A stretch of 64,000 nucleotides of DNA. Source: Candidatus Thorarchaeota archaeon. GTDB lineage: Archaea > Asgardarchaeota > Thorarchaeia > Thorarchaeales > Thorarchaeaceae. The stretch spans positions 71,672 through 135,671 of the forward strand of contig JBHLQM010000002.1 of NCBI GenBank assembly GCA_048884785.1. The letters are read 5' to 3'. This document shows, one piece after another, positions 40,719 to 64,000 of the stretch (its first letter is position 1; each line of letters begins with the position of its first letter). The notes under the pieces were generated by a model. That model saw nothing but the letters and a program-made list of their open reading frames with translations, made no database searches and was not told the DNA's origin. Made by a program: the position numbers and the translations under genes.

Positions 40719-41510
40719 ATGAGAGAAATCAAATACATCGATATCAGTGCCTCTAACCTTCGAGACCCTGTTGCAATTCTTGGATTGCCAGGCATTGGCA
40801 ATGTAGGAAGAATCGCAGTAGAGGCTTTAATAGAAGCATTGCAGGCCCCTCCTGTATTGGATTTCTATAGCGATGATTTTCCTGCAAGAGTAATCGTGAA
40901 GGACGGTCTTTCTCAATTTCCTAAATCCACAATACATCTCTATCGTGCAGCACCAGATGAGCCACACGATGTTCTGCTTCTCACCGCCGACCATCAGCCG
41001 GGATCAGGCAAAGGTGTCTTTGAATATGCGGACTATGTGGTGGCACAGTTCAATGAACTTAAGGTAAAGGAGGTTTATGCGTTGGCCGCATATGAACAGG
41101 GATATTCGGAGTTTTTCCAAGCATACCCTTCTCCTCCTCGGATATTTGTTTCTGCCAGTTCTCCAAGAATGCTTGAGAAAATTGAGTTGATGGAGGGTAC
41201 AATTCCCACCAAAGATGGAGTGATATCTGGTGCAAATGGATTCATTCCTGCCTGGGCAGCAACGAAGTATGGATTAGAAGGTGCCTGTCTTCTTGGAGAA
41301 ACCCTTGGAATTATCAAACTGGATTATCGTGCGTCAAGAGAAGTTATGCAAAAAGCAGCCCAACTAATCGGTTTAAAAATGGACATTGATATATTAGATG
41401 ATCACGTAGAACAGGTGATTGAGTTTATTGAGTGGGCGATGAAAGAAATCGATCGAAGAGCTACTCAAAGTGATGAAGGCGAAAGCCCTTCTGATCATTA
41501 CATAGGATAG
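40719..41510 (+). CDS. PAC2-family proteasome assembly chaperone
   Basis: GLPGIGNVGRIA, ADHQP, GVISGANG, CLLGET. Confidence 0.9.
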   Translation: MREIKYIDISASNLRDPVAILGLPGIGNVGRIAVEALIEALQAPPVLDFYSDDFPARVIVKDGLSQFPKSTIHLYRAAPDEPHDVLLLTADHQPGSGKGVFEYADYVVAQFNELKVKEVYALAAYEQGYSEFFQAYPSPPRIFVSASSPRMLEKIELMEGTIPTKDGVISGANGFIPAWAATKYGLEGACLLGETLGIIKLDYRASREVMQKAAQLIGLKMDIDILDDHVEQVIEFIEWAMKEIDRRATQSDEGESPSDHYIG

Positions 41511-43010: not shown

Positions 43011-43631
43011 TCAGTGTCCAATTTCCTTCCAATCAAGCATTTTCATATCTTCTAGGCTATGAAGTGCTTTCTGGACATCTTTGACAGTTTTACCCAACTG
43101 ATCTGCGATATCACGCACAGTTAGTTTTCCAGTGCACATTTGGCCAACATCATATACTTCCTGAGATATTTGTCCCAAACGGACTAGCATTGGTGATACT
43201 TTGCCCTTTAGTAATGGGACTAGGATTTTCATTTCTGAGGCTTTTCCATCCTTCGTGATTTCATCTAATTTGGGAACGAATGATTCGAAAGGTTCAAGAT
43301 TTCCATCCCAGTTTGGCAGGATAGAAGAATACTGCCTCACAAATTGGTTATTCACATCCGCCAGAACCGCCATAGCGGCATTACCATCATCCGTCTTGTC
43401 GACAGTTGCGGCAACTATGACATTATTCCTTAAGGAGAGACATATATCAAACGCACCGAAGTCGATGACATGCACTCGATTTCCTGAACTCAATTCCTGT
43501 CCAAACGAAATGAGAGCAGTGAGAAATCCGCTTATGAGATTGGGGTCCATTTCGGCCTCTCCGTATTTGCGGTCAAGCACGCACAGGCCACTGTCAGCAA
43601 TGAGCACGTATATTGCTTGAATCAACCTCAT
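43011..43631 (-). CDS. Longin domain + C-terminal winged helix (NPRL2-like architecture)
   Basis: IYVL...SGLCV...DPNLISGFLTAL..F..E is the Asgard longin pattern; C-terminal CTGKLTVRDIA...VQKALHSLEDMKML wHTH. Confidence 0.8.
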   Translation of the reverse strand: MRLIQAIYVLIADSGLCVLDRKYGEAEMDPNLISGFLTALISFGQELSSGNRVHVIDFGAFDICLSLRNNVIVAATVDKTDDGNAAMAVLADVNNQFVRQYSSILPNWDGNLEPFESFVPKLDEITKDGKASEMKILVPLLKGKVSPMLVRLGQISQEVYDVGQMCTGKLTVRDIADQLGKTVKDVQKALHSLEDMKMLDWKEIGH

Positions 43632-48090: not shown

Positions 48091-49422
48091 CTACTTCAAA
48101 TTGTGCTTTTTGACAAAATCCTTCAAGACATCTTCCAAATTTGGCCTGCCTATCTCCTGCAGATCATATCGAATCCTGGTATTAGGTTTCTTTATCTCAA
48201 TGATCTTGGCGAGGTCAATGGGTGTCCCTATCACAACAGCATCTACATCAGATTTGTTGATTGTTTTCTCCAATTCCTCCATCTGCTTCTTGCCATATCC
48301 CATTGCTGGAAGTACATCTTCAAGATGATCATACTTTTCGAATGTGGCTTTAATGCTCCCTACTGCAAATGGTCTGGGATCCACAACTATAGCTCCTGCC
48401 TTTCGAGCCGCTATGTATCCTGCACCATATGGCATATCGCCATGGGTGACTGTTGGGCCATCCTCTATAACAATGACTCTCTTTCCTTTGATCTTCTCGA
48501 TATCCTCGATGAGGACTGGAGAAGCGGCATCAATTATCTGAGCGTTCGGATTAGTAGCTATGACATTCTCACGAACGAATTCTATATCCTCATAATCTGC
48601 TGTATCAATCTTATTGATCACTACAACATCAGCCATTCTAAGATTTGTTTCACCGGGATAGTAGTTCACTTCATGACCCGGTCTGTGGGGATCGACAATT
48701 ACAATTAGTAAATCTGGTTTGTAGAATGGAAAATCATTGTTGCCCCCATCCCAAGTAATAACATCTGCTTCTTGTTCGGCTCTTTCCAGAATTTTCCCAT
48801 AATCCACTCCCGCATAGAGAGTTATGCCCATCTTAATCATAGGTTCGTATTCTTCTCTTTCTTCGATGGTGCATCGATACTTATCCATATCCTCGAGATT
48901 TCCATATCGCTGCGCAATTTGAGTTGTGAGGTCAGGATCATATGGCATCGGATGTCTAATGTTTACAGGCTTCAATCCCATATCTACTAAGATCTGATTC
49001 ACTCGTCTGGATGTCTGACTCTTACCACAACCGGTTCTGACTGCACAAACTGCAACAACCGGTTTTTTGCTTTTCAGCATAGTAGTTTGGGTTCCCATCA
49101 ACCGGAAATCTGCGCCAAGTGAGGTGACCCATGCGATTTTGTGTCCAACTGTTTCGTACGGAAGATCTGAGTATGCCAATATACATTGTTCGATACCATG
49201 CTCTCTAATCAATTCAGGAAGTTTTTCCTCTGGATATATTTTGATTCCCTCAGGATAGAGCTTTCCTGATAGCTCAGGCGGATAGATACGGTCTCCAATT
49301 CCTGGTATCTGTTCAGCAGTAAAAGCAACAATCTCATAGTCTTCATTATCTCTAAAGTACACGTTGAAATTATGGAAGTCACGACCAGCTGCTCCCATTA
49401 TGATGACTTTCTTTCTACTCAT
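48091..49422 (-). CDS. arcE: Arginine synthetase-like protein (COG2403, often annotated cyclic 2,3-diphosphoglycerate synthetase/GTPase)
   Basis: GAAGRDFHNFN, AVRTGCGKSQ, RHPMPY, TIEEREEYE, WDGGNND, EDGPT.THG, PAMGY match the Thermococcales ArcE family as I recall it. Confidence 0.8.
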   Translation of the reverse strand: MSRKKVIIMGAAGRDFHNFNVYFRDNEDYEIVAFTAEQIPGIGDRIYPPELSGKLYPEGIKIYPEEKLPELIREHGIEQCILAYSDLPYETVGHKIAWVTSLGADFRLMGTQTTMLKSKKPVVAVCAVRTGCGKSQTSRRVNQILVDMGLKPVNIRHPMPYDPDLTTQIAQRYGNLEDMDKYRCTIEEREEYEPMIKMGITLYAGVDYGKILERAEQEADVITWDGGNNDFPFYKPDLLIVIVDPHRPGHEVNYYPGETNLRMADVVVINKIDTADYEDIEFVRENVIATNPNAQIIDAASPVLIEDIEKIKGKRVIVIEDGPTVTHGDMPYGAGYIAARKAGAIVVDPRPFAVGSIKATFEKYDHLEDVLPAMGYGKKQMEELEKTINKSDVDAVVIGTPIDLAKIIEIKKPNTRIRYDLQEIGRPNLEDVLKDFVKKHNLK

Positions 49423-49587
49423 TGCAACCACCTTGTGGTACCATCGTCGTATCTGGTGCGGAACCTAAACTCCTATGTTAAGAAATTGCCGGTATCGAAC
49501 TTCCATATTTCAGGATACTTTAAGCTGTCAATTATTCAGAGCAGAATTCGATTTTTTGAACAACCTCTGCAATAATGCTATACTTCC

Positions 49588-49617: not shown

Positions 49618-49724
49618 TCGAAGAAAAAAGGAAGATGTAACACAAATCGTTAAATAGTAGGTACGCGAATTTAATGGAAGGTTGCCAGAGGAGCCTATCA
49701 TCTTTACTTGTATGGGGTGCAGTT

Positions 49725-50276
49725 GTGAAACTTGTTGAATTGGCTCGGAAGTCGCTTTCTATCCTAAAGGAGATTGGAGAGGAAGGAATTAGGAGCGATG
49801 AGCTTGCGGATGTTTTGAGGGTTCCAAAGAGAAGGGTCTACGATGTTGTTGCGGTGCTGAAGGCTCTTGATCATGTTGACACCAAAAGACGCTTCAATGG
49901 GACCACAGTCACTTGGGTTGACCGATCCAAAGAGTTCGTTCCTAAGAAAGAGTATGATATTTTGAAGTCTCGACTTGAAGACGAGAGTTCAGCAAGAAGG
50001 GAGATTCAAACACAACTGGCCGAGGTAAAAGAACAGCTAAGAATAACACGTTCAAAACTGAGGTTGGATGTTCAGGCAGTCGAATGCGCAAAGAAGACCG
50101 AGTTCAATACTACCTATCTCAGAATACGCGCTTTATCAGGACGTGGATTCAAACGAGTCGCTGATTCAGGGCATGAAGCCATTGTTGAAACTTATGAACC
50201 TGGACTCATTGTTGATCCATCTGAAGTGGAAATTGACGAGAATGAGTCAATTCTAAAGAATATCAAGAGCGTTTGA
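49725..50276 (+). CDS. E2F/DP-like winged-helix transcription factor with coiled coil and beta-rich C-terminus
   Basis: LADVLRVPKRRVYDVVAVLKAL...VTWV carries the E2F/DP RRxYD signature, followed by a heptad region. GGGGTG RBS before GTG 49725; ORF opens at 49674. Confidence 0.8.
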   Translation: MKLVELARKSLSILKEIGEEGIRSDELADVLRVPKRRVYDVVAVLKALDHVDTKRRFNGTTVTWVDRSKEFVPKKEYDILKSRLEDESSARREIQTQLAEVKEQLRITRSKLRLDVQAVECAKKTEFNTTYLRIRALSGRGFKRVADSGHEAIVETYEPGLIVDPSEVEIDENESILKNIKSV

Positions 50277-50730: not shown

Positions 50731-51897
50731 ATGTGTCCACAGGCATCTGATTCAAATGGGGTGGAACGCATTCACGTCGCCAAACTAGATGTGGCATTTG
50801 TAGTAGATACAACTGGTTCAATGAAAGATGATATCAGAGCTGTCAAGGATTCTCTATTTGATATTGTTGACAAAGTAGTTTCTAAAACTGAAGGATTATC
50901 CATTAGGTTCGGGATAGTGTCCTATAGGGATCATCCTCCTCAGGATAGAACCTATGTCACTAGAGTTTTTGATTTCACATCAAAGATAAAAGATGTTCAT
51001 ACAGAGATATCACGTCTTCGTCCTTCGGAAGGCGGCGACACTCCTGAAGCTGTGGCTGATGGTCTTTTTGATGCAAGAACGAAACTGACATGGGAAAAGG
51101 ATGCGTACAAAGTCCTACTTCTTGTTGGCGATGCTCCTCCTCATGGCAGATTGTATAACTCACTCAGTGACGATTACTTCCCTGATGGCTGTCCCAGAGG
51201 CCATGATCCTTGTAGAGAGGTACAAGATCTAGTCAAGGATTTTGGTACAACGATTTTTGTGTTTGTTCTCGGCTGCAATCCACTTGTAGAGCAATCATTT
51301 AGAAAAATCGCGTCTGCAACAGAGAATGGAGAATATTACTCTTTATCCAGGGCACATGAACTTCCAGAGGCAATTCTGCGAATCCTTGAGGGAGTTAGCG
51401 ATTTAATTGAAGAAGACCGGAAGGTTTTGGCATTTTATGAGGCTAACGATGGAATTTTCGACATAGGAAATGCCGCTCAGGAAATAGGAATGGAAGTCAG
51501 ACAGCTGAAAATCTCTCTCTCACGCCTTCTTGAGCTGGAACGAATCCCTCGATGGCCAAAGGGTCGGCCTCTGTCTCCTGATAAGATGGGCATCAAAGTT
51601 GTGCTAGGCGATGTACCTGATGCCCTTATTGCAGGAAGAGCCTTTAATTATCGTTTACGAGTAACCAATCCAAGTTCAACAATTCTAGGAATCAGGGTAA
51701 TTGTAACTCTTGTAACTGATGAAGGCGTATCCGAGATTACCAATGAACAGCATGAAATTGGTCCCCGAAATGATAGGCAAATTGAGCTAAGCTTGATACC
51801 TATGACAGAATCTAGAGAGAAAGCCAGTTTGCGGGTTGAAGTGTTTTATGGATCAAAAGCCGTGGCTCAGAAAATATACACCACACGAGTGTACTAA
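50731..51897 (+). CDS. vWA domain protein with intact MIDAS + wHTH + Ig-like C-terminal domain
   Basis: FVVDTTGSM, YRDHPP, GGDTPEA, GDAPPH; then AAQEIGMEVRQLKISLSRL and a beta-rich tail. Confidence 0.85.
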   Translation: MCPQASDSNGVERIHVAKLDVAFVVDTTGSMKDDIRAVKDSLFDIVDKVVSKTEGLSIRFGIVSYRDHPPQDRTYVTRVFDFTSKIKDVHTEISRLRPSEGGDTPEAVADGLFDARTKLTWEKDAYKVLLLVGDAPPHGRLYNSLSDDYFPDGCPRGHDPCREVQDLVKDFGTTIFVFVLGCNPLVEQSFRKIASATENGEYYSLSRAHELPEAILRILEGVSDLIEEDRKVLAFYEANDGIFDIGNAAQEIGMEVRQLKISLSRLLELERIPRWPKGRPLSPDKMGIKVVLGDVPDALIAGRAFNYRLRVTNPSSTILGIRVIVTLVTDEGVSEITNEQHEIGPRNDRQIELSLIPMTESREKASLRVEVFYGSKAVAQKIYTTRVY

Positions 51898-51911
51898 GCG
51901 GTGAGGATAGA

Positions 51912-53075
51912 GTGCAGCTTAAGGCGATCAGAGGACGAAACCAACGCGGATTATCATTCCTAGCTACCGGAAGCGGATTGGTAGACAAGACTGTCAGAAT
52001 AACACTTGGTTCAAATAGCATCCTCACTCGAATTCGTGATTCTCCAAAGGTCCCCTCAGATTTGATAGTCATTGACAGCCGACTCTACGACTCTCTTGGA
52101 GCAAAAGCAGGCGCAGAAGTGGAGGTTGCTGTTGTGAATTCAAAGATACCCTCCTGTACTGAATTGACATTGGTCGTTTCAGCAAAGCAAGATATCGATA
52201 CCAAAGATGTTGTAAAAGACCTATCTAACAGAATTGAGATTTTAGAGGAACACATCGACGGTCTGATTCTGAGATGTCGCCAAATCATTAGAATCCCGCC
52301 ACTTGGAATCTCAGTAAAAGTACGTGATATTCATCCGGTTTCAAGCGATCTTGGAGTAGCAATCCTAGATTGGAAAAGGAACACGAAGATATACCTGCAG
52401 GCAGATTTAGGGACAAAATGCTTCAATCTCATCTTAGTTACTGATGTCGGAGCCGCATCAAAAAAGGCCGACATTTCGCTATCGCATTCAGATGTAGATA
52501 TTGCCGGAGACTCGGTGATGAAACGCCATGAAGCAGCGGACCAATTAACAAGGTCTCTAATTGATGCTATCTCATTATGCGAGGGTGACCCTCTCCTCTC
52601 TTCTATAATCTATTCCGAGGAGACTGATGTTTTCCGAATCAATGATTCATCCGATGAAGTTGATAATGAGGTCATTGATATACATTCGCCCAGCATTTCA
52701 GAAATTCATTCAAAGTGGATTTCCAATTCAAGTGATGCACATGCAGAAGACGCCTCGAATCCGTCACTGGGTATTGAGCGAGCATTTTCAATCGCCACGA
52801 AGCTAAGGTCAAAAAACCATCTTCCAACCCTCATAGTGCTTCTTTCAAGTGGAGCATACTCGCATGGAAAGAACCCCGTGGCTACTGCAAAGAAATATGC
52901 ATCAGTTGATCAGGGGATATCGCTGGCTTGTGTAGGGTTAGGAACCAGGTGTGAGGAATCTCTACTGGTTGGAATTGCTGATGCCGCAGGAGGAACAGTT
53001 GATATTATCAAGGAGATTGCAGATATTCCGATTGTTCGAGACCGTCTTATTCAAACAGCACAAAAGGAGGCATAG
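51912..53075 (+). CDS. CDC48-N-like two-lobe domain + degenerate vWA (paralog of 58875..60164)
   Basis: IVIDSRLYDSLGAKAGAEVEV barrel motif; TKDVV...LEEHIDG aligns with TEDLV...LEDLIGG; FNLILVTDVGA, LIVLLSSG, CVGLG. Confidence 0.75.
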   Translation: MQLKAIRGRNQRGLSFLATGSGLVDKTVRITLGSNSILTRIRDSPKVPSDLIVIDSRLYDSLGAKAGAEVEVAVVNSKIPSCTELTLVVSAKQDIDTKDVVKDLSNRIEILEEHIDGLILRCRQIIRIPPLGISVKVRDIHPVSSDLGVAILDWKRNTKIYLQADLGTKCFNLILVTDVGAASKKADISLSHSDVDIAGDSVMKRHEAADQLTRSLIDAISLCEGDPLLSSIIYSEETDVFRINDSSDEVDNEVIDIHSPSISEIHSKWISNSSDAHAEDASNPSLGIERAFSIATKLRSKNHLPTLIVLLSSGAYSHGKNPVATAKKYASVDQGISLACVGLGTRCEESLLVGIADAAGGTVDIIKEIADIPIVRDRLIQTAQKEA

Positions 53076-53111
53076 TTTCTGACAGAACAACTAAGATCCC
53101 GACTCGAAGCC

Positions 53112-54251
53112 ATGTATGCAGGCGGAGAGATTATGGGGCACATCTCAGTAAAATTACCAGGAAGCAAAATAGCGGCAGGATGGATTGAACGGGGAATCAT
53201 TGCACAAGGGATTGGTGGCCATTTAGGTTCAAAAGAAAATCAAGAAAAATTCGCAATACCACTGAGCATAACAATGAGGTTTGTTGTTGATAGAGGGATT
53301 GATTCTGAAGGCGATTCTGGTATTCTAATCCTAGGGGAAAAAGGTTCAGAAAGAGAGAAATTTGTGGTTATATTCCAAAACAATTTCACAGAACGAAATG
53401 TAACCAAGATTATCTCAGCGTTTTGGCTAAAATCCGATTCACCAAAAGAGATACTCCAGCTGTTTACACGTTCAGTTCTTAATCATCAATTTGTGGAGCC
53501 TAACGTAGAGCCACCAATTGATTATGTTGAGTATATACGAGAAAGCGCTTCTGTCTTGAATTGTACAGAAGGATTTGCATTGGAGATTCCACAGAATTGG
53601 AAAAAAAAGAGAAATTGGATACCAGAAACACTTCAAGGTGATTCAACAAGCTCAGTTCTATTCAAACATAAACATCCAAAGGATTCCATATCTCTAGCTT
53701 TATTGCTGAGCAACTGGATTGCAGAAATGAATGAAACCCTAAGAGTTACGAATTTAGTTGGAGCATGTTTCTTCCTTCGGTCAGATACTATAGAGAGTTT
53801 CCTCTGGGATGGACCTAGAAGTATTCTAACGTCATCTATTTTCGGGAGTTCAAATTTTGAAGCCATCTCAGTGAATACTCTTGCCTTTTTGTGGGAATCT
53901 ATGGACACACATATTTCCCAGATAGATTCCAAAGCTATCAGGAGCGAGGATGAACCTCTGCCAAAAGAAAGAGTAGTAGTCCCCCCCGAATATGAACGCC
54001 TGGCAAGCGTGGCAAGAGGGCTGCTTGGCAAGATAGATATTGAAGATATGTTTCGAAGAATTGAAAGAACCGAAGCTATACTAGGCGAGCTCGAAAGAGC
54101 TAGCAGTACCAAACCAGACGAAGAGAAACCAAAATTACCGACTCATATTGAATCAAGACTTCGTGATGCATTAGACCAGCTTGAAAACCTGGCGACTCGA
54201 CTCATAGAAATGGAACAACGAATTCAAGCTATATGTAATCAATTGGAGTAA
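53112..54251 (+). CDS. Hypothetical protein with C-terminal coiled coil
   Basis: 379-aa ORF (alternative ATG 53133 after GGAG); heptads in the last ~80 aa. Confidence 0.7.
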   Translation: MYAGGEIMGHISVKLPGSKIAAGWIERGIIAQGIGGHLGSKENQEKFAIPLSITMRFVVDRGIDSEGDSGILILGEKGSEREKFVVIFQNNFTERNVTKIISAFWLKSDSPKEILQLFTRSVLNHQFVEPNVEPPIDYVEYIRESASVLNCTEGFALEIPQNWKKKRNWIPETLQGDSTSSVLFKHKHPKDSISLALLLSNWIAEMNETLRVTNLVGACFFLRSDTIESFLWDGPRSILTSSIFGSSNFEAISVNTLAFLWESMDTHISQIDSKAIRSEDEPLPKERVVVPPEYERLASVARGLLGKIDIEDMFRRIERTEAILGELERASSTKPDEEKPKLPTHIESRLRDALDQLENLATRLIEMEQRIQAICNQLE

Positions 54252-54258
54252 TTGAATA

Positions 54259-54528
54259 ATGACAGATGCTTGGATCTCGCAGATGAATATGCTCCTGCAT
54301 TCTCTAGAAGAGATAGATGAAGCCAGGATAAGAATTCGGGAAGTTGAATCTAGGATATTGGATTTCACAAAAGGCAAAGAGGCATCATTGGAGAAGGAAG
54401 GGATCAAAGAATCATCAGATATTTCCTTGATTGATGAGGTCCTTCGCTTTATTGAAGATGTAGAACTATCTGTAAACCGCTTGGATATTCGCCTATCCGC
54501 AATTGAACGCTTAGTAAAAAAAGAGTGA
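54259..54528 (+). CDS. Small coiled-coil protein
   Basis: 89 aa, GGAG RBS, two amphipathic helices. Confidence 0.65.
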   Translation: MTDAWISQMNMLLHSLEEIDEARIRIREVESRILDFTKGKEASLEKEGIKESSDISLIDEVLRFIEDVELSVNRLDIRLSAIERLVKKE

Positions 54529-54541
54529 TAATTTGCCTATC

Positions 54542-57166
54542 CTAACGTGGCGAAATCTGCTTTATCACTGATTGCAAATATCCTAAATAATCAAACATGG
54601 AGAGCTCATTAAGGGGCAGAATTCTTACTTTCAATCCCTTCAAAATACTTTGAGCTCTCGTTGTTTCAAATCCATTGCCAATACCGATTAATTCTAGATG
54701 ATAGTTTACACTGCCTGAGATAGCTTTTGTATACGAGTCAATCTCAGCTTCTTGACCCTCTAGATTGCTAGCGCATATTATCACTATTGTCGGCCGGTCA
54801 CCACCAAAATCCTCAAGCATCTCAGCAATGCTTCTAAAGATTCCCGTGGGATTAGTTGGGCCTTCAGGTAGCTCTCCTGAATCAAGAATTGAATAGATCA
54901 GGGATGTGATCACTTCATTGTTATTCATGTCGTCATACAATTCAATATAGTCCTGTGAAGTTGCCCCTTTCTGGATAGAGAATTTCATAGGTGAACTACC
55001 AGCAAATATAATTCCCATCTTTCCATCTGATCTATTGCGCTTCATTCGCATAAGTGTCAGCAATCCAATAATAGTCGAAACATCCCCTCTCGAAACTGTC
55101 GTACCCAATCCTTTCAGATACTGTTGCAAATCAATATTTCCTTCAGCAAATGGCTCTAGGTATTTTTTAAGAGATGTAGGAGTTGCCAGTTGCACATCCC
55201 GTGTCTTCATCTCGCTTCCTGTTGAGAGAATAAGTAGAATATTCAGGTCGTTGAGAAAGACCCTAGGCTGGATTTCAACAAGGGTATCGCCAATTCTTGC
55301 TAATTGATTTCGCTCTATAGCTGGTTCAGTATATGCCACATCAAGTTCCACACCTTTTGAAGTCACAAACCTACTACCAATTCCTATCAAGTGGCTGGAT
55401 ATTCTTTTTATTATCTCATCTCTCTCAATGTGAAGATGTGTAGATAGTTCGGATTCTGTAAATCCTGGGACGTCTTCATAAGTCAAGAGGACACTCGTCA
55501 AATCTGCAACTTTGTCAACATATCTTATTACATCCAATTTTGAAGACTGCGTGAGACCATAGCATTTAGAATCATTGGCACTGAGCCCAAGATTTCTTGA
55601 GGGACAGGTTTTACTGGGATTTACACTAGCTCCCCACCAATGACCAGAATTTGCATCAAGGATTGTTACTGTATTACCAGATTTCACTCCAATTGCCTTC
55701 ATGTCTCCTGAACACATCGATATTTTACCTGGATCGATTTCGTCATTTTCAATGCCAAATTGTAGAGATGACATCACTTCCTTTGTAGCGCTCACTCCCA
55801 AAGCATTCAGGAATGTGTTATTAAAGGCGGAAATATGACTCGGAGCATCAAGTACTGGTCCCTTATCTGCCGCCACAATGCTTGTCCTGAAGGCTTTTGC
55901 GTTTCTTGGTGTAACTGATTCTGAAAATACAGGGTTCCAAGCTACAAGCCTAAGAGATCCGCCTTGTTCTCGATGAAGGGCGACACTGTTTGCCAATCCT
56001 GTTTTGATGTCTTCCACTGTGAGTATTCCAGAGTCAAAATCAACAAGGCCATTATTAGAATCTAGCATAAAATCGAATGATATTATGTCCTGTATTTTTC
56101 TTACAGAGAGAACACGTAGGAGCCGGGATATTTCTAGTAGGGCAGTCTTCCCTAGTTTCCCCTCAGCGAGAGCTGTGTTTTCATTAAACCTGTATCCAAG
56201 AAAAGATGGTCTCACAGGCAACAGCGAGAGAATATTACCTGCCAGGATTCTTTGTAAATCCTCTAGTGTGGCTCCCATATTCTTACTGAGGATAAAGCTA
56301 AGTATCTCTGGAACTGTATCACCTAGTTGGGTTTCCGGATATGCACTTGAAAATATCAGCTTCTCCGACCAATGCATATCAGTATCAGTCTTCTTCAGAA
56401 CATTGATTATAGTTGATAGTGATCCTATTGTCGCACCAGATGTTAGCAGGCGTGTCCTAGGGAGTTCCAGAAGTGCAAGTATATGTTCTTCTAGATGCTT
56501 ATGAGAGGGCACCAAGAAGACCACTTCTGGTTGTGGAAGAGCCGCTTCCTTTACAAAAACGAGCCATTCAAGTATCTCATCTATCGCACGCATTTCATTC
56601 AGATGTAAATAGATTGGCTCTCTGTTCTTAATGCATTGAATCAAAGCATCTTTGTCTTTTCCTTCAAAAACATTCGACAAACTAGACGCATCAAGTAGAC
56701 ATCCCCATCCCGCAGGGATTTTCAGACCATGTCCCAAATTTCTCAAGGCGTATATGCGGGAAGAAAACTCTGATTTGGCTCCCCATCGAAAGCATGAATC
56801 TATGTTATTTCTTTGCTGAAACCTTGGAAGTGCCTTATTAGATACCTCAGTCAGTGGATGCGCTACAAACATGTCTGCAATCCATGAACCATCGACTGAA
56901 CTTGGGTTGCTATCGTAGATATCTGCAAGAAGAGGAGGTCGCGATAGGTATGAATAGGCTCTTCTCGGGAGATACCGAAATGAAGTCGCATATTGTGACG
57001 CCAAGTCATATACTTGAGAGCCAACAAGGTCATAGAATCTCAGGAGCCTTTCAGGGTCGAACGAGCGAATACTGGCTCCTAATTGTATGATTCCCAACTT
57101 AACGCTGGCGTCCACTAATAGGAGCTGCTTGAGCTCATTCGTTTCTCTGTCCTCTACGACTAACAT
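54542..57166 (-). CDS. Fusion of inactive amidohydrolase-like barrel + CDC48-N-like domain + degenerate vWA
   Basis: N-half aligns with 57297..58805 (MLVV...VDA, HWSE.L.F, QRIL.GN.LS) but lacks the metal ligands. C-half aligns with 58875..60164 (WGA, MKT.DV, TVSR, PT, IG.G). Confidence 0.8.
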   Translation of the reverse strand: MLVVEDRETNELKQLLLVDASVKLGIIQLGASIRSFDPERLLRFYDLVGSQVYDLASQYATSFRYLPRRAYSYLSRPPLLADIYDSNPSSVDGSWIADMFVAHPLTEVSNKALPRFQQRNNIDSCFRWGAKSEFSSRIYALRNLGHGLKIPAGWGCLLDASSLSNVFEGKDKDALIQCIKNREPIYLHLNEMRAIDEILEWLVFVKEAALPQPEVVFLVPSHKHLEEHILALLELPRTRLLTSGATIGSLSTIINVLKKTDTDMHWSEKLIFSSAYPETQLGDTVPEILSFILSKNMGATLEDLQRILAGNILSLLPVRPSFLGYRFNENTALAEGKLGKTALLEISRLLRVLSVRKIQDIISFDFMLDSNNGLVDFDSGILTVEDIKTGLANSVALHREQGGSLRLVAWNPVFSESVTPRNAKAFRTSIVAADKGPVLDAPSHISAFNNTFLNALGVSATKEVMSSLQFGIENDEIDPGKISMCSGDMKAIGVKSGNTVTILDANSGHWWGASVNPSKTCPSRNLGLSANDSKCYGLTQSSKLDVIRYVDKVADLTSVLLTYEDVPGFTESELSTHLHIERDEIIKRISSHLIGIGSRFVTSKGVELDVAYTEPAIERNQLARIGDTLVEIQPRVFLNDLNILLILSTGSEMKTRDVQLATPTSLKKYLEPFAEGNIDLQQYLKGLGTTVSRGDVSTIIGLLTLMRMKRNRSDGKMGIIFAGSSPMKFSIQKGATSQDYIELYDDMNNNEVITSLIYSILDSGELPEGPTNPTGIFRSIAEMLEDFGGDRPTIVIICASNLEGQEAEIDSYTKAISGSVNYHLELIGIGNGFETTRAQSILKGLKVRILPLNELSMFDYLGYLQSVIKQISPR

Positions 57167-57296
57167 CCAATGCTCTTCCTGAAGGTTTCATGCAATTCGT
57201 GTTTGTGAAGCAATTTATGCATAATGAAGCTTTTCAAAGAATGGGAATAGTTTATCACTGGTGGCTCTTTTCACCTTAGAGAGGCATGCTATAATA

Positions 57297-58805
57297 ATGC
57301 TTGTTGTCCGAGCTCTTGATGATGCACCTGAGCAAGGTGTGCGAAAGGATGACATTTATCGACTGTATATAGTCGATGCTCACCATCATATGGGTAAAGA
57401 AAAAACACATCGAAATACACCCGGTGGCGCATATGACTTCTACCAGCTCTTGTGGTTTGAAATGAAGCGGCTTTCTCAGCATGAACTTGAGAATGATAGT
57501 CTGCTGTTTGAGCCTGTAGATGTAGTTGCTTCTCCGTTCCCCTCTAGTGTCTTCTCAAGTAGAGATAGCTGGTCCCGAATGAATCACGGGTGGCTTGTCG
57601 ATAGAACGATTGCATTTCCATATTCAGATGACTATTCAAAAACAGGGAAAGATGGTGAAGCATCATTTAAGGTTTCAAATGATAAAATCGCAGGATGGAC
57701 AACACGTGCTCCTCACTCGACAAGGCTTATTGGTTTCGGACGTGTTGATCCACAAGATGCCAAAAAAGGTAATCCTGACATTGCTGTAAGAGAATTAGAC
57801 CGAGCTGTTCTTACTCTTGGATTAAGAGGATTGAAACTACACCCGCTTGCTCAGCTGTTCATTGATGAATTGGAGGGTGACATAACCAAGAGGATCCTAA
57901 AGCGAGCTGGTGAACTTGGAATCCCTGCAATTTTTGATACGAGAAATATAAAGACAGTGATTCGAATAAAGCATCTTGTTGATGCCATGAGTGAAGATCC
58001 AGTGTATTCACAGGCCGCAAAGAAACTAAACATCATATTGGCCCATTGTGGAATGAGTCCTGGTGACTCCAAATTATATGACATTTTGAGGGATCCACGT
58101 TTCTCTGCAGATACTTCTACACTGCATGATCAAGACATTCCGCTGCTTTGTGATATGGCCATAAATCGAATAAATACTCCCGCAAAACATTGGTCTGAGA
58201 GCTTGCTATTTGGGACAGATTATAGTTTCCTCTCAACTCAAGCAGCAGAAGTCATTCTTTACACCCTCTCAAGGGATTTTCCAGGCAGATTGAGTGACGC
58301 TCAACGGATTCTAGGCGGAAATGCACTTTCAATAATTCAACAGCCATTCAAGACAACCAGAAGGAGTAGAAGATATCCTCGCCAATTATCCTGCCCCAAT
58401 GAAGAAGGAAAGTCTAGATACATAATTGAAAAGGCGATTATCTCACTTCTTCATAATGGCGAATGGGACTTATCATCTCTTGATAGCATGCTACCACCTC
58501 TGCATACATGGCCTGAGTTACTGCCCGAAGAACTGGGAGGGTTTAACGGAGTATACACTGATTCATTACTGGCAACTCTTCAGTCAAAAGAGGAGGATTA
58601 TGAATTGCACCTCTGGATTCGAACGAATCCGGGTGATATTCTAACAGTTGCGGCCGTTGGAACAAAAGGCGAGGATTCACTCAAAACCTTGGAGTTTACA
58701 ACACAGAGAATTGGTGAGAGCTTACTTGAAGAACTCTCGAAAAACACACGTCACGAGAGCAATGCGCATTCTCTAGTGGACAGCATTCCAAGAATATTGA
58801 GGTAG
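57297..58805 (+). CDS. Amidohydrolase_2-type metal-dependent TIM-barrel enzyme with extra C-terminal domain
   Basis: VDAHHH, GLRGLKLHP, ILAHCG, LLFGTDY, ILGGNA. ATG 57297 chosen because the paralog also begins MLVV; ORF opens at 57261. Confidence 0.88.
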   Translation: MLVVRALDDAPEQGVRKDDIYRLYIVDAHHHMGKEKTHRNTPGGAYDFYQLLWFEMKRLSQHELENDSLLFEPVDVVASPFPSSVFSSRDSWSRMNHGWLVDRTIAFPYSDDYSKTGKDGEASFKVSNDKIAGWTTRAPHSTRLIGFGRVDPQDAKKGNPDIAVRELDRAVLTLGLRGLKLHPLAQLFIDELEGDITKRILKRAGELGIPAIFDTRNIKTVIRIKHLVDAMSEDPVYSQAAKKLNIILAHCGMSPGDSKLYDILRDPRFSADTSTLHDQDIPLLCDMAINRINTPAKHWSESLLFGTDYSFLSTQAAEVILYTLSRDFPGRLSDAQRILGGNALSIIQQPFKTTRRSRRYPRQLSCPNEEGKSRYIIEKAIISLLHNGEWDLSSLDSMLPPLHTWPELLPEELGGFNGVYTDSLLATLQSKEEDYELHLWIRTNPGDILTVAAVGTKGEDSLKTLEFTTQRIGESLLEELSKNTRHESNAHSLVDSIPRILR

Positions 58806-58874
58806 ATGCCTGATGCACTATCCTTTATATCGTTACATGCTTTGATTAAATTAGGAGTCTAGGAGGCTTTTGCT

Positions 58875-60164
58875 ATCGTCGATAATCTGAACCTTGAAAT
58901 TGTAGATGGCGGGGATCTACGCGGGTACGCCACACTAAATCCCAAAACCGCAGATGCTCTTAAAGCTGAGATTGGATCCATTGTAATTTTTGAAGACCCT
59001 GAGAGTAGTTTTTGGGGAGCTGCTGAGATACGGAAGAGCAATGATGTTCCTGAAGGCCAAATTTTTGTGGACACATTGGTACTTGAAGCATCACTCCTTA
59101 TGGAGGGCGATAGCGTTGAGGTTTCATTATATGAGCGAGACATGATAGCACTAGACTATGTTGAATTTGGATTGAAACCCCTTTCTGAGGATGCGAACAC
59201 CGAGGATTTAGTCACGAGGGCTGCCGAGAAAGTTGAATCGTTGGAGGATCTCATTGGAGGCCGTTTGGTCTATCCGGGCATGTCTTTCAATTGGCCAGAC
59301 TTAGATGTTAAGGTTGAGATTATGAACACTCGTCCTGGCTTAACAGGCAAGAGTTTCGCAAAACTTGCTTTCGAAGCCCTGAAAGAGAGAACCGGATATC
59401 AATTTAAAACAATAGGCATTGCCACACCATTCAATGCCATCCTCTGTATTGATACAAGCGGGTCAATGAAGACAAATGATGTTCCCGTACAGGACATAGC
59501 CCATGCAAGGGAAGGTCTCAAGGATTTGGCAGGAGATAATCCTGAGGTTCAAGCATTTCTGGATAGATTCGAAGAAGGAAGAACAGTAAGTAGAGCTGAG
59601 GCGGCGGCTATGGCAGTTTTGCTGTATCTGGCTGAGAAAGTTGGCCGAGGCTATGGTGAAAAAGTAGGCGTCATTACATTTGAAAAAGAAGTCGCTGAAA
59701 TGACATTTCTCAATGCCGATACAGGTGAAGTACAACCATTTGTGGAGTGTACGGGACGTGAGAAAGCACTGGGTTTGCAGATCATAAGCACTCATGTAGT
59801 AGACAAGGTTGAGGAAGGCGGGACTTTGACAAACATGGGTAATGCATTGGCAAAGGCTGCAGATGTCCTTAGCGCCATGGGTGATCCAACCAAGCCTACT
59901 ATGTTCATTCTTCTAACTGACGGTATGACAACAGCTGGTCCACCACCCCTAAAAGTCATGAAAGACCGTTTTCCTGATAGAAGCAGCTTTGTAATGTATT
60001 GTATTGGATTGGGAGAACGAAGCGAATTGGACGAGGAATTGATGCTTGCTCTCTCACAATACGGCAATGGTACCTATCGACATGTCGACAATATGAGAGA
60101 TTTGCTGGAATGGTATGGCCGCTTAGCTAGTGAGTTTGCCATTGTAATTCGTGGAGCAGAGTAG
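58875..60164 (+). CDS. CDC48/NSF-N-like two-lobe domain + vWA with intact MIDAS (DEPDC5/Iml1 NTD-SABA-like); probable ATC start
   Basis: Frame is open from 58863 and encodes RGYATLNPKTADALKAEIGSIV...WGAAEI...GQIFVD upstream of the tracked GTG 59067. MIDAS DTSGS / T / LTDG; AGGAGG at 58861-58866. Confidence 0.8.
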   Translation: MVDNLNLEIVDGGDLRGYATLNPKTADALKAEIGSIVIFEDPESSFWGAAEIRKSNDVPEGQIFVDTLVLEASLLMEGDSVEVSLYERDMIALDYVEFGLKPLSEDANTEDLVTRAAEKVESLEDLIGGRLVYPGMSFNWPDLDVKVEIMNTRPGLTGKSFAKLAFEALKERTGYQFKTIGIATPFNAILCIDTSGSMKTNDVPVQDIAHAREGLKDLAGDNPEVQAFLDRFEEGRTVSRAEAAAMAVLLYLAEKVGRGYGEKVGVITFEKEVAEMTFLNADTGEVQPFVECTGREKALGLQIISTHVVDKVEEGGTLTNMGNALAKAADVLSAMGDPTKPTMFILLTDGMTTAGPPPLKVMKDRFPDRSSFVMYCIGLGERSELDEELMLALSQYGNGTYRHVDNMRDLLEWYGRLASEFAIVIRGAE

Positions 60165-60165
60165 T

Positions 60166-61359
60166 TCATCTAGGTTCCAATGCATCTGCAAGATCTTTCA
60201 ATGAGTCGATATCCATCTCTTGAATCTGGTCTTCAGGGATACCCGCCAACATCTCCTCTGGGATATTCGAGAGTATCTTCGCCTTTTCTTCCCCATACTT
60301 CTCAATCAAGGCTGAGATTCTCACATCGTCTTCGGATTCTTTCGTCTTCTTCGGCTTCTCTTTCTTAGGGGCTTCTTTTTCGGGAACGCTCACTCCCTCA
60401 TCAACAGGAGCCATAGGAGCAATCTCTGAACTTGATGCCACGACAGCTTCAAGTTCTTCTATTGAGAGACCTTCCAGAACATCTTCGGGGAGCGATGCCT
60501 TTACTTCCTCAGGGATTTGCTCAAGTAGATCCTCTTTGGATGGTCCGGTCCTCTTCTTAACTTTCTTTACCTTGGTGACCTTTACCGTCTTTTTCTTGAG
60601 CTCCTTATCCTTTTTGCTAGGAGCCGCAGCAAGTAGTGAATTCACCAGTTCTCTTGCTGTATTTGGCGTTAGTCGTCTCAGGTCCTCCTCAGGAAGTGTT
60701 TCTCTGATTTCATCGGGGAGTTCGGAAAGGATTTCTTCTACCTCAGGGGAAATCCCAGTTGGTTTAGAAAGGATTGGTGATTCCATTTCAGCGCCTTCCA
60801 AGATAATTGGTCCTGACTCCATTGCCTCTATTATAGAAGTGTCAATCTCAACCTCGTAATTCTGCTTTCTCCATTTCATGAAGCGATCAATTTGCTTTGG
60901 CCTTACTTTGATATCGAGAAGGAAACTGCGAATTTGCTCTTCATCCATCTCTGGAAAATCAGCAAGAATTTTGTCAACACTGTCTTTTGATAATCGTGCC
61001 CAAATGGGTCCTGCTATTAGTTTTGAAAGTCCATTGGCACAGTGGGATCGCACCCAAGTACTTGGATCCTTCAATCCCTCAACCAAAGTCGGGATTGTAG
61101 ACGGTTGTTGGTACCAAGCCAGAACTTCAGCTGCAGCTATTCTGACTTCTTCCTCATCATCCTTTAATGCTTGTACAACATCCTTGACAATTGTTGGATC
61201 TGCAAGCTCGAGCGTTGCAATCAAAGCTCTTTGTCTAACGATGTCCGAAGTGTCTGATATTGCCTTCACAAGTGCTTGTCTAACGGCCGAATTACTACGC
61301 GCGCGAACCCCTACTTCCTCGGTTAGGAAATCTAGCAGCATTCTCCTAGTTTCAGACAT
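60166..61359 (-). CDS. HEAT/PBS-lyase repeat protein with three acidic L/IPEE helical repeats
   Basis: DIVRQRAL, EEVRIAAAEVL, TWVRSHCANGL repeats; C-terminal LPDEI/IPEEV/IPEEM units. ATG 61359 follows GGAGAGG. Confidence 0.82.
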   Translation of the reverse strand: MSETRRMLLDFLTEEVGVRARSNSAVRQALVKAISDTSDIVRQRALIATLELADPTIVKDVVQALKDDEEEVRIAAAEVLAWYQQPSTIPTLVEGLKDPSTWVRSHCANGLSKLIAGPIWARLSKDSVDKILADFPEMDEEQIRSFLLDIKVRPKQIDRFMKWRKQNYEVEIDTSIIEAMESGPIILEGAEMESPILSKPTGISPEVEEILSELPDEIRETLPEEDLRRLTPNTARELVNSLLAAAPSKKDKELKKKTVKVTKVKKVKKRTGPSKEDLLEQIPEEVKASLPEDVLEGLSIEELEAVVASSSEIAPMAPVDEGVSVPEKEAPKKEKPKKTKESEDDVRISALIEKYGEEKAKILSNIPEEMLAGIPEDQIQEMDIDSLKDLADALEPR

Positions 61360-63201: not shown

Positions 63202-64000
63202 TTACTTCTCCTCATCCGTTCCCTTGTTTCTGGGAATCTTCATACCACCAGTTCCTGCCGTTATGGCTGCTGCCATTCCAGCTGACATACCAACCTCAGG
63301 AATGTTCGTAGGTACCATGATGATTAGATTGGCGTTCTTGCTAATCTCCTGCATGATGTTCCAGGTACGTAGTGTCATACCTGAGGGAGAACGCTCATAG
63401 GTCTGTGCCGCTTTTAGCATGGCCTCTGAAGCCTCAAGCTCAGCTTGTGCAAGAGTGATTCTCGCACGCCTCTCTCTTTCCGCTTGTGCTTCTCTGCTCA
63501 TTGCATCTTGCAGCTGGGTTGGGATAACCACGTCTCGTATCTCAACGGCTGTTACTTTCACACCCCAGTGTTCAGTCTTCTCATCAATCAGCTCCTGCAA
63601 ATGAGCAGCAATTCTATCTCTGTCGGACAGCAATTCATCCAGAGTCACTTTACCAGTGGTTTCTCTGAGTGTTGTCTGAGCTGCTAGCTCCACTGCAACA
63701 GTGTATCTCTCAACGCTGAGGATTGCCTTTTCAACATCAATCACTCTGAAATACATCACAGCATCAACAACCACAGGTACATTATCCTTTGTGAGAGACC
63801 TCTCAGTTTTGAAAGCGTATGTGAGTAATCTTAGAGATACTCTCATGGCAACCTTATCAAGGAAAGGAGTCACCCATATGATTCCTGGTCCGCGAATGTG
63901 CTTGAATTTACCAAGCCTAAGAATGGCCACTCGCTCCCATTCCTTCAAAATCTTGATACCACTAGCTATGAACATCAAGGCGAAGAATGCGAGGACTATC
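63202..64000 (-). CDS. Stomatin/SPFH (slipin) protein, N-terminus beyond window edge
   Basis: EWERVAILRLG, LTKDNV, AQTTLR, WGVKVTAVEIRD, AERERRA; frame stays open (IVLAFFAL) to the window end. Confidence 0.93.
   Translation of the reverse strand, partial: IVLAFFALMFIASGIKILKEWERVAILRLGKFKHIRGPGIIWVTPFLDKVAMRVSLRLLTYAFKTERSLTKDNVPVVVDAVMYFRVIDVEKAILSVERYTVAVELAAQTTLRETTGKVTLDELLSDRDRIAAHLQELIDEKTEHWGVKVTAVEIRDVVIPTQLQDAMSREAQAERERRARITLAQAELEASEAMLKAAQTYERSPSGMTLRTWNIMQEISKNANLIIMVPTNIPEVGMSAGMAAAITAGTGGMKIPRNKGTDEEK

Follow-up and report, generated by a model that had tools for sequence, protein, structure and literature searches.

Gene content of the cluster

The window analyzed here, a 64,000-nucleotide stretch of a Candidatus Thorarchaeota contig, holds a gene cluster at 50731-61359, and all of the cluster's open reading frames (ORFs) listed in an earlier sequence-only reading are present in the sequence. 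The cluster opens on the plus strand with P0001 (50731-51897), a 388-aa protein composed of a vWA domain (residues 20-212), in which the MIDAS-like DxTxS metal site is intact (D-T-T-G-S, T104, D134), and an uncharacterized C-terminal half. This protein is kept in Thorarchaeota and is 63% identical to the copy in a complete relative (L005). Two further plus-strand genes follow: P0002 (51912-53075, 387 aa), which is restricted to some Thorarchaeota and belongs to the paralog family described below, and P0003 (53112-54251, 379 aa), which joins a globular N-terminal part without an assigned fold to a C-terminal coiled coil. P0003 occurs in 22 of the 44 sampled genomes of the source organism's own family, adjacent to the cluster every time, at identities of 20-44%. 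Beyond a plus-strand ORF of 89 aa with no family match (54259-54528), putatively a coiled-coil protein according to the sequence-only reading, lie P0004 (54542-57166, minus strand, 874 aa), a fused protein, and P0005 (also P0302; 57297-58805, plus strand, 502 aa), a TIM-barrel metal hydrolase of the Amidohydro_2 family with a C-terminal extension of ~150 aa. An alternative GTG start at 57261 would lengthen P0005 to 514 aa. The cluster ends with P0007 (58875-60164, plus strand, 429 aa) and, converging with it, P0006 (60166-61359, minus strand), a HEAT-repeat protein with an acidic, Lys-rich repetitive tail whose conservation is limited to Thorarchaeota. The neighbors that had been claimed are present, namely a fourth vWA protein, an Amidohydro_2 hydrolase, a HEAT protein and coiled-coil C-termini. 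Elsewhere in the window are a longin-wHTH gene (43011-43631; Pfam Longin E 0.029), 7 kb upstream of the cluster, and a PAC2 proteasome-assembly gene (40719-41510), 10 kb from the cluster and outside its conserved core.

P0007 consists of a two-lobe Cdc48-N domain (residues ~1-185) followed by a vWA domain with a full MIDAS, and we refer to this core adaptor family as NvWA. Its frame begins at 58875 with an ATC codon, which is preceded by AGGAGG 8 nt before and by an in-frame TAG 4 codons before; the first canonical start, GTG at 59067, would remove half the barrel. Judging from these sequence features, ATC at 58875 is the probable start. Sequence and model evidence agree with the proposal that P0002 and the C-terminal half of P0004 are paralogs of P0007 with the same two-domain organization. 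P0002 aligns with P0007 over nearly its full length (BLASTP 3e-11, 21% identity), and the P0004 C-half is related to the other paralogs over the segment following the MIDAS motif (BLASTP 5e-4). Moreover, the P0007 family profile, over positions 6-352, matches P0004-type proteins of 870-890 aa (1e-8 to 1e-15), and an AlphaFold model of the P0004 C-half places Cdc48-N before vWA, as in P0007. A Pfam search yielded zero AAA family matches in all three paralogs, as had been claimed, and the residues of P0007 after position 185 fold as vWA rather than as AAA+ D1/D2 with Walker motifs.

Among these three paralogs, residue comparison finds the full MIDAS (DxSxS..T..D) in P0007 only. Its vWA domain has, in the model, both the fold and the metal site (D193-x-S195-x-S197, T319, D349), which is invariant across the family, and an insert of ~40 residues is conserved after the DxSxS loop. 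The corresponding motifs are degenerate in P0002 (D-V-G-A-A, with S at the last position) and in P0004 (S-T-G-S-E, also with S at the last position). Compared with the nearest relative, P0007 is 94% identical and P0004 56%, consistent with P0007 being an active adaptor under constraint and P0004 a pseudo-copy that is freer to diverge.

P0005 matches Amidohydro_2 (PF04909) at 41.9 bits (cut-off 26.4; E 1.3e-10) and has the invariant residues D27, H29, H31, K180, H182, H250 and D308, which include the HxH, His, His and Asp metal/catalytic set of members such as ACMSD, LigI and IDCase. It differs from these enzymes in its C-terminal extension, its obligate genomic pairing with NvWA and the existence of a dead, fused paralog. 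That paralog is P0004, whose N-half is homologous to P0005 (1e-8; residues 265-316 align with 310-359) and in which the catalytic Asp of strand 8 is replaced (FSSAY, versus FGTDY in P0005). By these residues, P0004 is a fast-evolving, catalytically dead fusion of hydrolase and NvWA in which both metal sites are lost. A Rosetta-stone fusion also occurs in another genome (G038), where a single ORF is matched by the hydrolase and NvWA profiles alike.

A ligase and the distribution of the three core genes

A third gene accompanies the hydrolase and NvWA. Contig C84 of the source genome carries PfkB-like and DUF92 genes and a 1144-aa ORF in the same order as is found downstream of the cluster in L005, placing this ORF 7-8 kb downstream of the hydrolase/NvWA pair on a contig that continues the window. 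The ORF scores above the cut-off of 21 for PF04107 (24.0-24.2 bits), over a span of only ~45 positions, and matches TIGR02050 (YbdK/glutamate-cysteine-ligase) at 60.9 bits (1.2e-16), below that model's cut-off of 176. We therefore annotate it as a putative carboxylate-amine ligase of the GCS2/YbdK type. Ligases found with NvWA carry 500-900 extra residues.

The presence or absence of these genes was scored in 201 genomes of the phylum from 27 families, related genomes being non-independent samples. NvWA was found in 101 genomes, the hydrolase in 99 and the ligase in 100; all three occupy the same 9 families and none of the remaining 18. Within the source organism's own family, seven genomes lack the three genes together, and one (G055) has a ligase match without NvWA and hydrolase. 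NvWA extends across genomes labeled Thor, Odin/Asgardarchaeia, Hermod, Sigyn and Heimdall, and in the ESM Atlas the whole two-domain model was matched by one cluster only, from Asgard archaea (TM 0.86).

Gene order recurs as well. Hydrolase (plus), NvWA (plus) and ligase (minus) lie within 6-8 kb of one another at seven loci (two each in G038, G006 and G076, and L007), and the three are also close together, on a single strand and in a different order, in G102. Heimdall and other loci have operons of three to four NvWA paralogs with GCS2. From the distant loci read, the core is kept across Asgard lineages, and the coupling to the amidohydrolase proposed from sequence is strongly supported by the near-identical presence and absence of the genes and their recurrent order. 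Some arrangements count against a module: in one family (f9) the ligase adjoins the hydrolase with NvWA 10-50 kb off; in Thorarchaeota unrelated genes (HEAT, Rce1-like, NfeD, Band 7, PfkB-like and DUF92) intervene between the pair and the ligase; and the Thorarchaeota ligase adjoins oligopeptide ABC ATPase genes, in a block that is duplicated elsewhere without NvWA. The hydrolase, adaptor and ligase form a trio that is conserved, duplicated and inherited as a unit, and roughly half of the Asgard genomes sampled have it. The trio has no described function, and we found no published description of it.

A candidate adaptor-organized modification module

Structure prediction suggests that the hydrolase and the adaptor interact directly. 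The predicted complex of P0302 and P0007 scored 0.62, compared with 0.00 for the best of three controls, with at least 80% contact agreement between runs and a partner pLDDT of at least 77. Of 80 solved complexes, 58 attained the same mark, as did 2 of 110 mismatched pairs; these counts hold only roughly here because our own alignments were used as input. The predicted interface comprises hydrolase residues 33-55, 89-97, 111-134, 275-283 and 312-317 and, in the P0007 N domain, residues 11-14, 43-46, 67-76, 101-108, 135-146 and 180-185. The hydrolase is thus predicted to bind P0007.

We propose, with a probability of roughly 55%, that NvWA proteins are non-ATPase adaptors or scaffolds of an undescribed, Asgard-specific module that also comprises the Amidohydro_2 hydrolase and the large GCS2 ligase. 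The active pair in the window would be the hydrolase at 57297-58805 and the MIDAS-intact NvWA at 58875-60164. In the model, the NvWA N domain clamps onto the hydrolase barrel at its catalytic face. This would leave the MIDAS metal free to bind a third partner or a substrate through a carboxylate, whether that of Asp, of Glu or of a C-terminus. We speculate that the ligase makes an amide bond that the hydrolase removes, so that the two would constitute a writer/eraser pair organized by the adaptor and acting on a protein, peptide or metabolite. P0002 is a second NvWA copy without MIDAS; together with P0004 and the coiled-coil, vWA and HEAT proteins, it would most likely have a scaffolding or regulatory role, without catalysis, in a hetero-oligomer. 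Such a complex, which the sequence-only reading tentatively linked to metabolite sensing or proteostasis, is plausible. The module may represent a previously undescribed reversible system of amide-linked modification. Should it indeed write and erase an amide-linked mark, Asgard archaea, to which eukaryotes are most closely related, would possess a modification system of a new kind.

By analogy only, this arrangement recalls pupylation, in which a glutamine-synthetase/GCS2-like ligase works with an opposing amidase (PafA/Dop): both would combine an ATP-dependent carboxylate-amine ligase, an enzyme able to undo the bond and a non-catalytic recognition protein. In contrast to pupylation, the opposing enzyme of the Asgard module is not a ligase paralog but a TIM-barrel hydrolase of the Amidohydro_2 family, and there is neither a conserved Pup-like tag gene nor a proteasomal ATPase partner; no small ORF that might encode a tag was conserved in the module loci read.

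A rather unlikely alternative assigns the genes to small-molecule metabolism, with the ligase making an amide metabolite, of the gamma-glutamyl type or another, and the hydrolase degrading or processing it. NvWA would then not present a protein substrate but regulate or assemble the two enzymes, perhaps as an allosteric subunit or one that delivers metal. The affinity of the ligase to YbdK/glutamate-cysteine-ligase models and its oligopeptide ABC ATPase neighbors in Thorarchaeota favor this reading, and the predicted NvWA contact over the catalytic face could gate access. To our knowledge, moreover, the Amidohydro_2 enzymes studied to date (decarboxylases, lactonases and hydratases) act on small molecules and not on proteins. 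However, the large extra regions of the ligase and the C-terminal extension of the hydrolase would be unusual for simple metabolic enzymes; the degenerate NvWA paralogs, the dead-enzyme fusion and the coiled-coil partners resemble a macromolecular assembly; and Cdc48-N domains are, as far as we know, protein- or peptide-binding modules in every context studied.

Comparison with DEPDC5/Iml1, Cdc48 and vWA proteins

The sequence-only reading described the paralogs as archaeal relatives of the GATOR1 scaffold and staked this in advance on whether the joined two-domain region would score DEPDC5/Iml1 above generic Cdc48-N and vWA proteins, which it did, and on whether related genomes keep the cluster, whose core does recur across Asgard lineages. 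In a Foldseek search of PDB with the P0007 model, DEPDC5/Iml1 chains took ranks 1-10 (5.6e-14 to 1.6e-10, ~430 columns), ahead of p97/NSF N-D1 (2e-10 at best), of the p97 N domain by itself (2.7e-9) and of vWA on its own (4e-9), and they took ranks 1-4 with the independently modeled P0004. This lead is due to the shared domain order, and global superposition of P0007 on DEPDC5/Iml1 is poor (TM by query 0.36-0.42, rmsd ~10 A), the orientation of the two domains being different. Taken singly, the domains appear closer to other proteins. The N domain superposes on p97 N in both lobes (TM by target 0.70-0.73, rmsd 3.4-4.3), and the NvWA family profile reaches Cdc48 N at 25.7-27.8 bits (1.4e-5) and DEPDC5 residues 38-123, in a construct with two tandem copies, at only 24.9 bits, making the N domain, by score, at least as close to Cdc48; Pfam CDC48_N matches P0007 at E 0.019, below the family cut-off. 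The residue matches to human DEPDC5 proposed in the sequence-only reading were not confirmed, and a phmmer search of all PDB sequences with P0007 residues 1-110 did not find DEPDC5 at E<=10. Aligned rigidly, the vWA domain has generic vWA, TFIIH, ArnB and Sec24 domains as its nearest matches, with DEPDC5 outside the best 50. The Pfam IML1 family (PF12257) has zero matches at E<=1 to any cluster protein and at E<=10 in a six-frame search of the source genome, which is 91% complete. Of the relationship originally proposed, the common architecture is therefore real, and homology to GATOR1 is unproven, as is common ancestry of NvWA with DEPDC5.

Taken as a true GATOR1 relationship, that proposal would hold that NvWA is homologous to the NTD-SABA region of DEPDC5/Iml1 and, with NPRL2-like longins of Thorarchaeota, forms a nutrient-sensing scaffold that controls a Rag-like GTPase. 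Like NvWA, DEPDC5/Iml1 (Sea1; GATOR1/SEACIT) has a two-lobe NSF/Cdc48-N-like domain, immediately after it a vWA-type alpha/beta domain, and no ATPase. Its NTD resembles the NSF N domain and its SABA domain the Sec23 trunk, a domain composition said to occur in no other protein (PMC8534245). NPRL2-like proteins have been reported from most Thor genomes (bioRxiv 10.1101/2020.10.19.343400), a longin-wHTH gene lies upstream of the cluster, and NvWA is limited to Asgard archaea. Beyond the weak superposition and missing IML1 matches, however, NvWA lacks the SHEN, DEP and CTD regions: P0007 and P0002 end with vWA, P0004 extends N-terminally, with its dead hydrolase, and zero DEP matches were found. 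The invariant MIDAS of P0007 and the insert conserved after it also argue against this reading, as do the partners, since DEPDC5/Iml1 acts with NPRL2/3 and Rag GTPases and the conserved hydrolase and ligase have no GATOR1 counterpart. Longin, Roadblock and Rag genes were not recurrent in the conserved neighborhoods, eight distant loci included. We consider this reading improbable.

A looser connection is doubtful but less so. No prokaryotic counterpart of DEPDC5/Iml1 was found in the literature searched, and the layout that NvWA has in common with DEPDC5/Iml1 makes it a candidate source of the NTD-SABA module. When eukaryotes arose, the adaptor of a ligase/hydrolase module in Asgard archaea might then have been co-opted as the scaffold of GATOR1, the GAP complex for Rag GTPases. 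An Asgard-wide family with this layout gives the question of where that scaffold came from a specific candidate that can be tested, and complements the NPRL2-like longins previously reported from Thorarchaeota.

It is very unlikely that NvWA instead forms a Ufd1-like and Rpn10-like receptor that brings proteins with a ubiquitin-like tag to the proteasome or Cdc48. In favor of such a receptor, the p97 and Cdc48 N domains matched by its N domain include ones solved with UBX, SHP and VBM ligands, Rpn10 is well known to have the vWA fold, and a PAC2 gene lies in the window. However, that gene is distant from the conserved core, it is the hydrolase and ligase that are kept as partners, and genes for ubiquitin, E1/E2/E3, Cdc48 or the proteasome do not recur beside NvWA in any of the loci read.

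The N domain shares its double-psi barrel and second lobe with the N domains of Cdc48, p97, VAT and NSF and with Ufd1 UT3. In Cdc48, p97 and VAT, this domain is followed by AAA+ D1/D2 rings with Walker motifs, whereas NvWA continues into vWA; and where the Cdc48/p97 N domain docks UBX/SHP cofactors, that of NvWA is predicted to dock an enzyme. Conversely, the vWA domains of ArnB (8s05, 5a8j), TFIIH p44/p34, the Sec23/24 trunk and ITIH1 lack a Cdc48-N head, and P0007 differs from such stand-alone modules in its post-DxSxS insert, its partners and its gene context.

Paralogous proteins joining a Cdc48-N and a vWA domain

All ORFs listed in the sequence-only reading are present in the window (C2:71672-135671), which derives from a 3.6-Mb Thorarchaeota bin that is 91% complete. 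P0007 (58875..60164, +; 429 aa) joins a two-lobe Cdc48-N domain to a vWA domain, an arrangement we refer to as NvWA. Its alignment with the paralog P0002 (51912..53075, +) spans nearly the whole length (3e-11), and its direct similarity to P0004 (54542..57166, -; 874 aa; 22% identity) is confined to the part downstream of the MIDAS loop (5e-4). When a profile of P0007 orthologs was searched exhaustively, 95 cluster representatives scored E<=1e-10. Most top-scoring matches covered the full length, and the list includes P0004-type proteins (870-890 aa) matched across positions 6-352 of the profile.

Structural models extend the comparison. An AlphaFold model of P0007, built from a 62-sequence family alignment (pLDDT 91.6, pTM 0.84), resembles the whole p97 N domain, both lobes, across residues 1-185 (TM by target 0.73, rmsd 4.0). 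The P0004 model (pLDDT 79.7) has an alpha/beta N-terminal half followed by the N-plus-vWA arrangement seen in P0007. The P0007 family retains MIDAS residues D193, S195, S197, T319, and D349, and P0002 and P0004 have lost them. The alignments, profile matches, models, and MIDAS pattern therefore confirm the earlier observation of three paralogs that combine Cdc48-N with vWA.

The P0007 ORF begins at an ATC codon (58875), 8 nt past AGGAGG and four codons past an in-frame TAG. Were translation to begin at the earliest canonical codon, GTG 59067, the protein would lose half of its N-terminal barrel, and all orthologs keep this barrel. The orthologs have their initial Met slightly further upstream, by a few residues (e.g., MEAITIV), where our genome reads stop-EAFAIV (58860-58877). 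Pfam identified vWA families in P0001 (50731..51897, +) and P0007, Amidohydro_2 in P0005 (57297..58805, +), HEAT repeats in P0006 (60166..61359, -), and a sub-threshold CDC48_N match on P0007 (E 0.019). It gave zero matches for P0002, P0004, and the coiled-coil protein P0003 (53112..54251, +), and an AAA domain in none of the cluster proteins. NCBIfam holds no name for the NvWA, P0003, P0004, or P0005 proteins.

Linkage to a hydrolase and a GCS2 ligase across Asgard archaea

The core of the cluster is conserved in related genomes. A complete Thorarchaeota relative (L005) keeps its core order of vWA protein, 878-aa fusion, hydrolase, NvWA, and HEAT protein, with P0002 and P0003 absent. At distant Asgard loci we found two to four NvWA paralogs each, together with a P0005-type hydrolase and a large GCS2 (PF04107) carboxylate-amine ligase. 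Five further genomes add to this: hydrolase (+), NvWA (+), and ligase (-) follow in this order within 6-8 kb twice each in genomes G038, G006, and G076, and the same gene order occurs at locus L007; in G102 the three are also neighbors, but all on one strand and differently ordered. The contig of the window stops at 64000, and the ligase falls outside the window. Contig C84 of the same genome carries PfkB-like, DUF92, and 1144-aa GCS2 ORFs in the order found downstream of the cluster in L005, and therefore the ligase of this genome is ~7-8 kb beyond P0007. The C84 block (C84:1102-7910, L017) has a paralogous counterpart in the genome (C6:3453-10284, L018). Each contains a pair of oligopeptide-type ABC ATPase genes, two small ORFs (~146 and ~223 aa), and a GCS2 ligase (1144 and 1151 aa, respectively), after which come a DUF92 and a PfkB-like gene. 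The NvWA cluster is near the C84 block only, and the C6 ligase block has no NvWA gene nearby.

Of the 201 genomes sampled from the phylum, 101 have NvWA, 99 have the hydrolase, and 100 have the ligase. Because related genomes are not independent, we place weight on the family-level pattern: all three are restricted to the same nine of the 27 families, the remaining 18 having none of them. Seven genomes of the family to which ours belongs are without all three, and an eighth (G055) lacks NvWA and hydrolase with a ligase match present. Named NvWA members come from Thor, Odin/Asgardarchaeia, Hermod, Sigyn, and Heimdall bins, plus one Korarchaeota-labelled bin. A structure search of the ESM Atlas found a single cluster matching both domains, which is Asgard (TM 0.86). 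Actinomycetota vWA clusters raised by a language-model atlas (score 0.93) were set aside, since the atlas structure search gave the two-domain fold in the Asgard cluster only. In one large Asgard family (f9), ORFs that match NvWA are ~660-770 aa long, implying an N-terminal extension of ~300 aa; there the NvWA gene is unlinked from the ligase-hydrolase pair, which is adjacent.

Conservation of P0001 and the HEAT protein is limited to Thorarchaeota. P0003, a coiled coil preceded by an N-terminal part with no assigned fold, is present in 22 of the 44 sampled genomes of this archaeal family, each time adjoining the cluster; it diverges fast, and in both PDB and Pfam every match of its profile is a coiled coil. 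At Heimdall loci, NvWA genes likewise have long coiled-coil neighbors, 621-646 aa in length (L009:7827-9767 and L010:11469-13334). ATG17_like matches to these 621-aa and 646-aa neighbors (31.1 and 20.1 bits, with a Pfam cut-off of 43) were rejected as probably compositional because they are sub-cut-off and inside long coiled coils. The 200-aa product of 49674-50276 (+), beside the cluster, contains an E2F/DP winged-helix domain (PF02319, 1.9e-8), and its gene adjoins the cluster in L005 too. The nearest NTPase is the 446-aa product of 48091-49431 (-), a weak CobW/HypB/UreG GTPase match (1.3e-5) that is 80% identical in L005. A PAC2-family (proteasome assembly chaperone) gene lies at 40719-41510 (+), and locus L014 also has a PAC2 gene ~6.5 kb from an NvWA gene.

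A fused dead copy and a predicted hydrolase-NvWA complex

In P0005, residues H29, H31, H182, H250, and D308 are invariant. Within the P0004 N-terminal half, one segment shares homology with the final strands of the P0005 barrel (1e-8), and there the catalytic Asp motif FGTDY is changed to FSSAY. Given this and the lost MIDAS, P0004 represents a hydrolase-NvWA fusion lacking both metal sites. Its sequence identities mark it as fast-evolving: P0007 is 94% identical in the nearest relative versus 56% for P0004, and 78% versus 33% in L005.

A fusion of this kind predicts binding between the stand-alone hydrolase and NvWA proteins. Complex prediction for the hydrolase (as P0302) with P0007 scored 0.62, versus 0.00 for the best of three controls. 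The 0.62 mark was reached by 58 of 80 solved complexes and by 2 of 110 mismatched pairs; because our prediction used its own alignments, these counts apply only roughly. Runs agreed in at least 80% of contacts, and partner pLDDT was at least 77. The modeling supports but does not demonstrate hydrolase-P0007 binding, with the P0007 N domain and inter-lobe linker predicted to sit on the catalytic face of the barrel, leaving the MIDAS site free. The coupling to an amidohydrolase that had been proposed from the gene cluster has strong support.

Putting together the observed folds, paralogy, motif loss, linkage, and co-occurrence with the predicted hydrolase-NvWA binding, we favor, at slightly better than even odds (roughly 0.55), NvWA proteins as non-ATPase adaptors of an Asgard ligase/hydrolase module. 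The Cdc48-N domain of P0007 would dock the hydrolase, and its MIDAS would hold a carboxylate-bearing partner on which the GCS2 ligase would form an amide bond that the hydrolase would remove. Degenerate NvWA paralogs, the dead fusion included, may be scaffolds or regulators. We infer the MIDAS ligand, the writer/eraser logic, and the substrate class, which may be protein, peptide, or metabolite. If the linked enzymes belonged to small-molecule metabolism, NvWA would be its regulator, a reading we consider unlikely. A defense system was rejected, PADLOC returning no meaningful match for the cluster proteins or the ligase. In the literature searched, the NvWA family and the ligase/hydrolase module that we propose it serves are described nowhere.

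Resemblance to the GATOR1 scaffold

The sequence-only reading regarded the paralogs as archaeal relatives of the GATOR1 scaffold DEPDC5/Iml1. DEPDC5 itself has an NTD similar to the NSF N domain and a SABA domain similar to the Sec23 trunk, a combination considered unique (PMC8534245). In Foldseek searches of PDB with the P0007 model, human DEPDC5 and yeast Iml1/Sea1 chains fill the first ten places (5.6e-14 to 1.6e-10; ~430 aligned columns). Below these come p97/NSF N-D1 (2e-10 and weaker), p97 N alone (2.7e-9), and the ITIH1 vWA (4e-9). The P0004 model yielded the same top four, so that with both models DEPDC5/Iml1 is ahead of generic Cdc48-N and vWA across the joined domains. In our reading, the architecture is genuinely shared and no other match is statistically better, but this alone does not establish common descent.

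DEPDC5/Iml1 reaches a TM by query no higher than 0.36-0.42 and an rmsd of about 10 A, values that superposing one domain would give. Rigid alignment places the P0007 vWA domain nearest to generic vWA, TFIIH p44/p34, ArnB, and Sec24, and DEPDC5 is missing from its 50 best matches. An N-domain profile matched Cdc48 at 25.7 bits with one domain and DEPDC5 at 24.9 bits only in a two-copy tandem construct; the "2 stretches" in 9xzy, considered as NTD plus SABA, are both copies in that construct. Searches of PDB by phmmer with P0007 residues 1-110 and full length did not find DEPDC5, and Pfam IML1 had zero matches in the cluster proteins and the genome. DEPDC5/Iml1 also differs in possessing SHEN, DEP, and CTD regions, which NvWA proteins lack.

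The resemblance is one of domain layout, and GATOR1 orthology is unsupported. A true GATOR1-like regulator of Rag proteins seems quite improbable to us, and we give very little credence to a Ufd1/Rpn10-like proteostasis adaptor. Separately, the 206-aa product of 43011-43631 (-), 7 kb upstream of the cluster, matches Longin weakly (E 0.029), carries a C-terminal winged-helix region, and has no PDB sequence match; it is of interest because NPRL2-like longins have been reported in Thorarchaeota (bioRxiv 10.1101/2020.10.19.343400).
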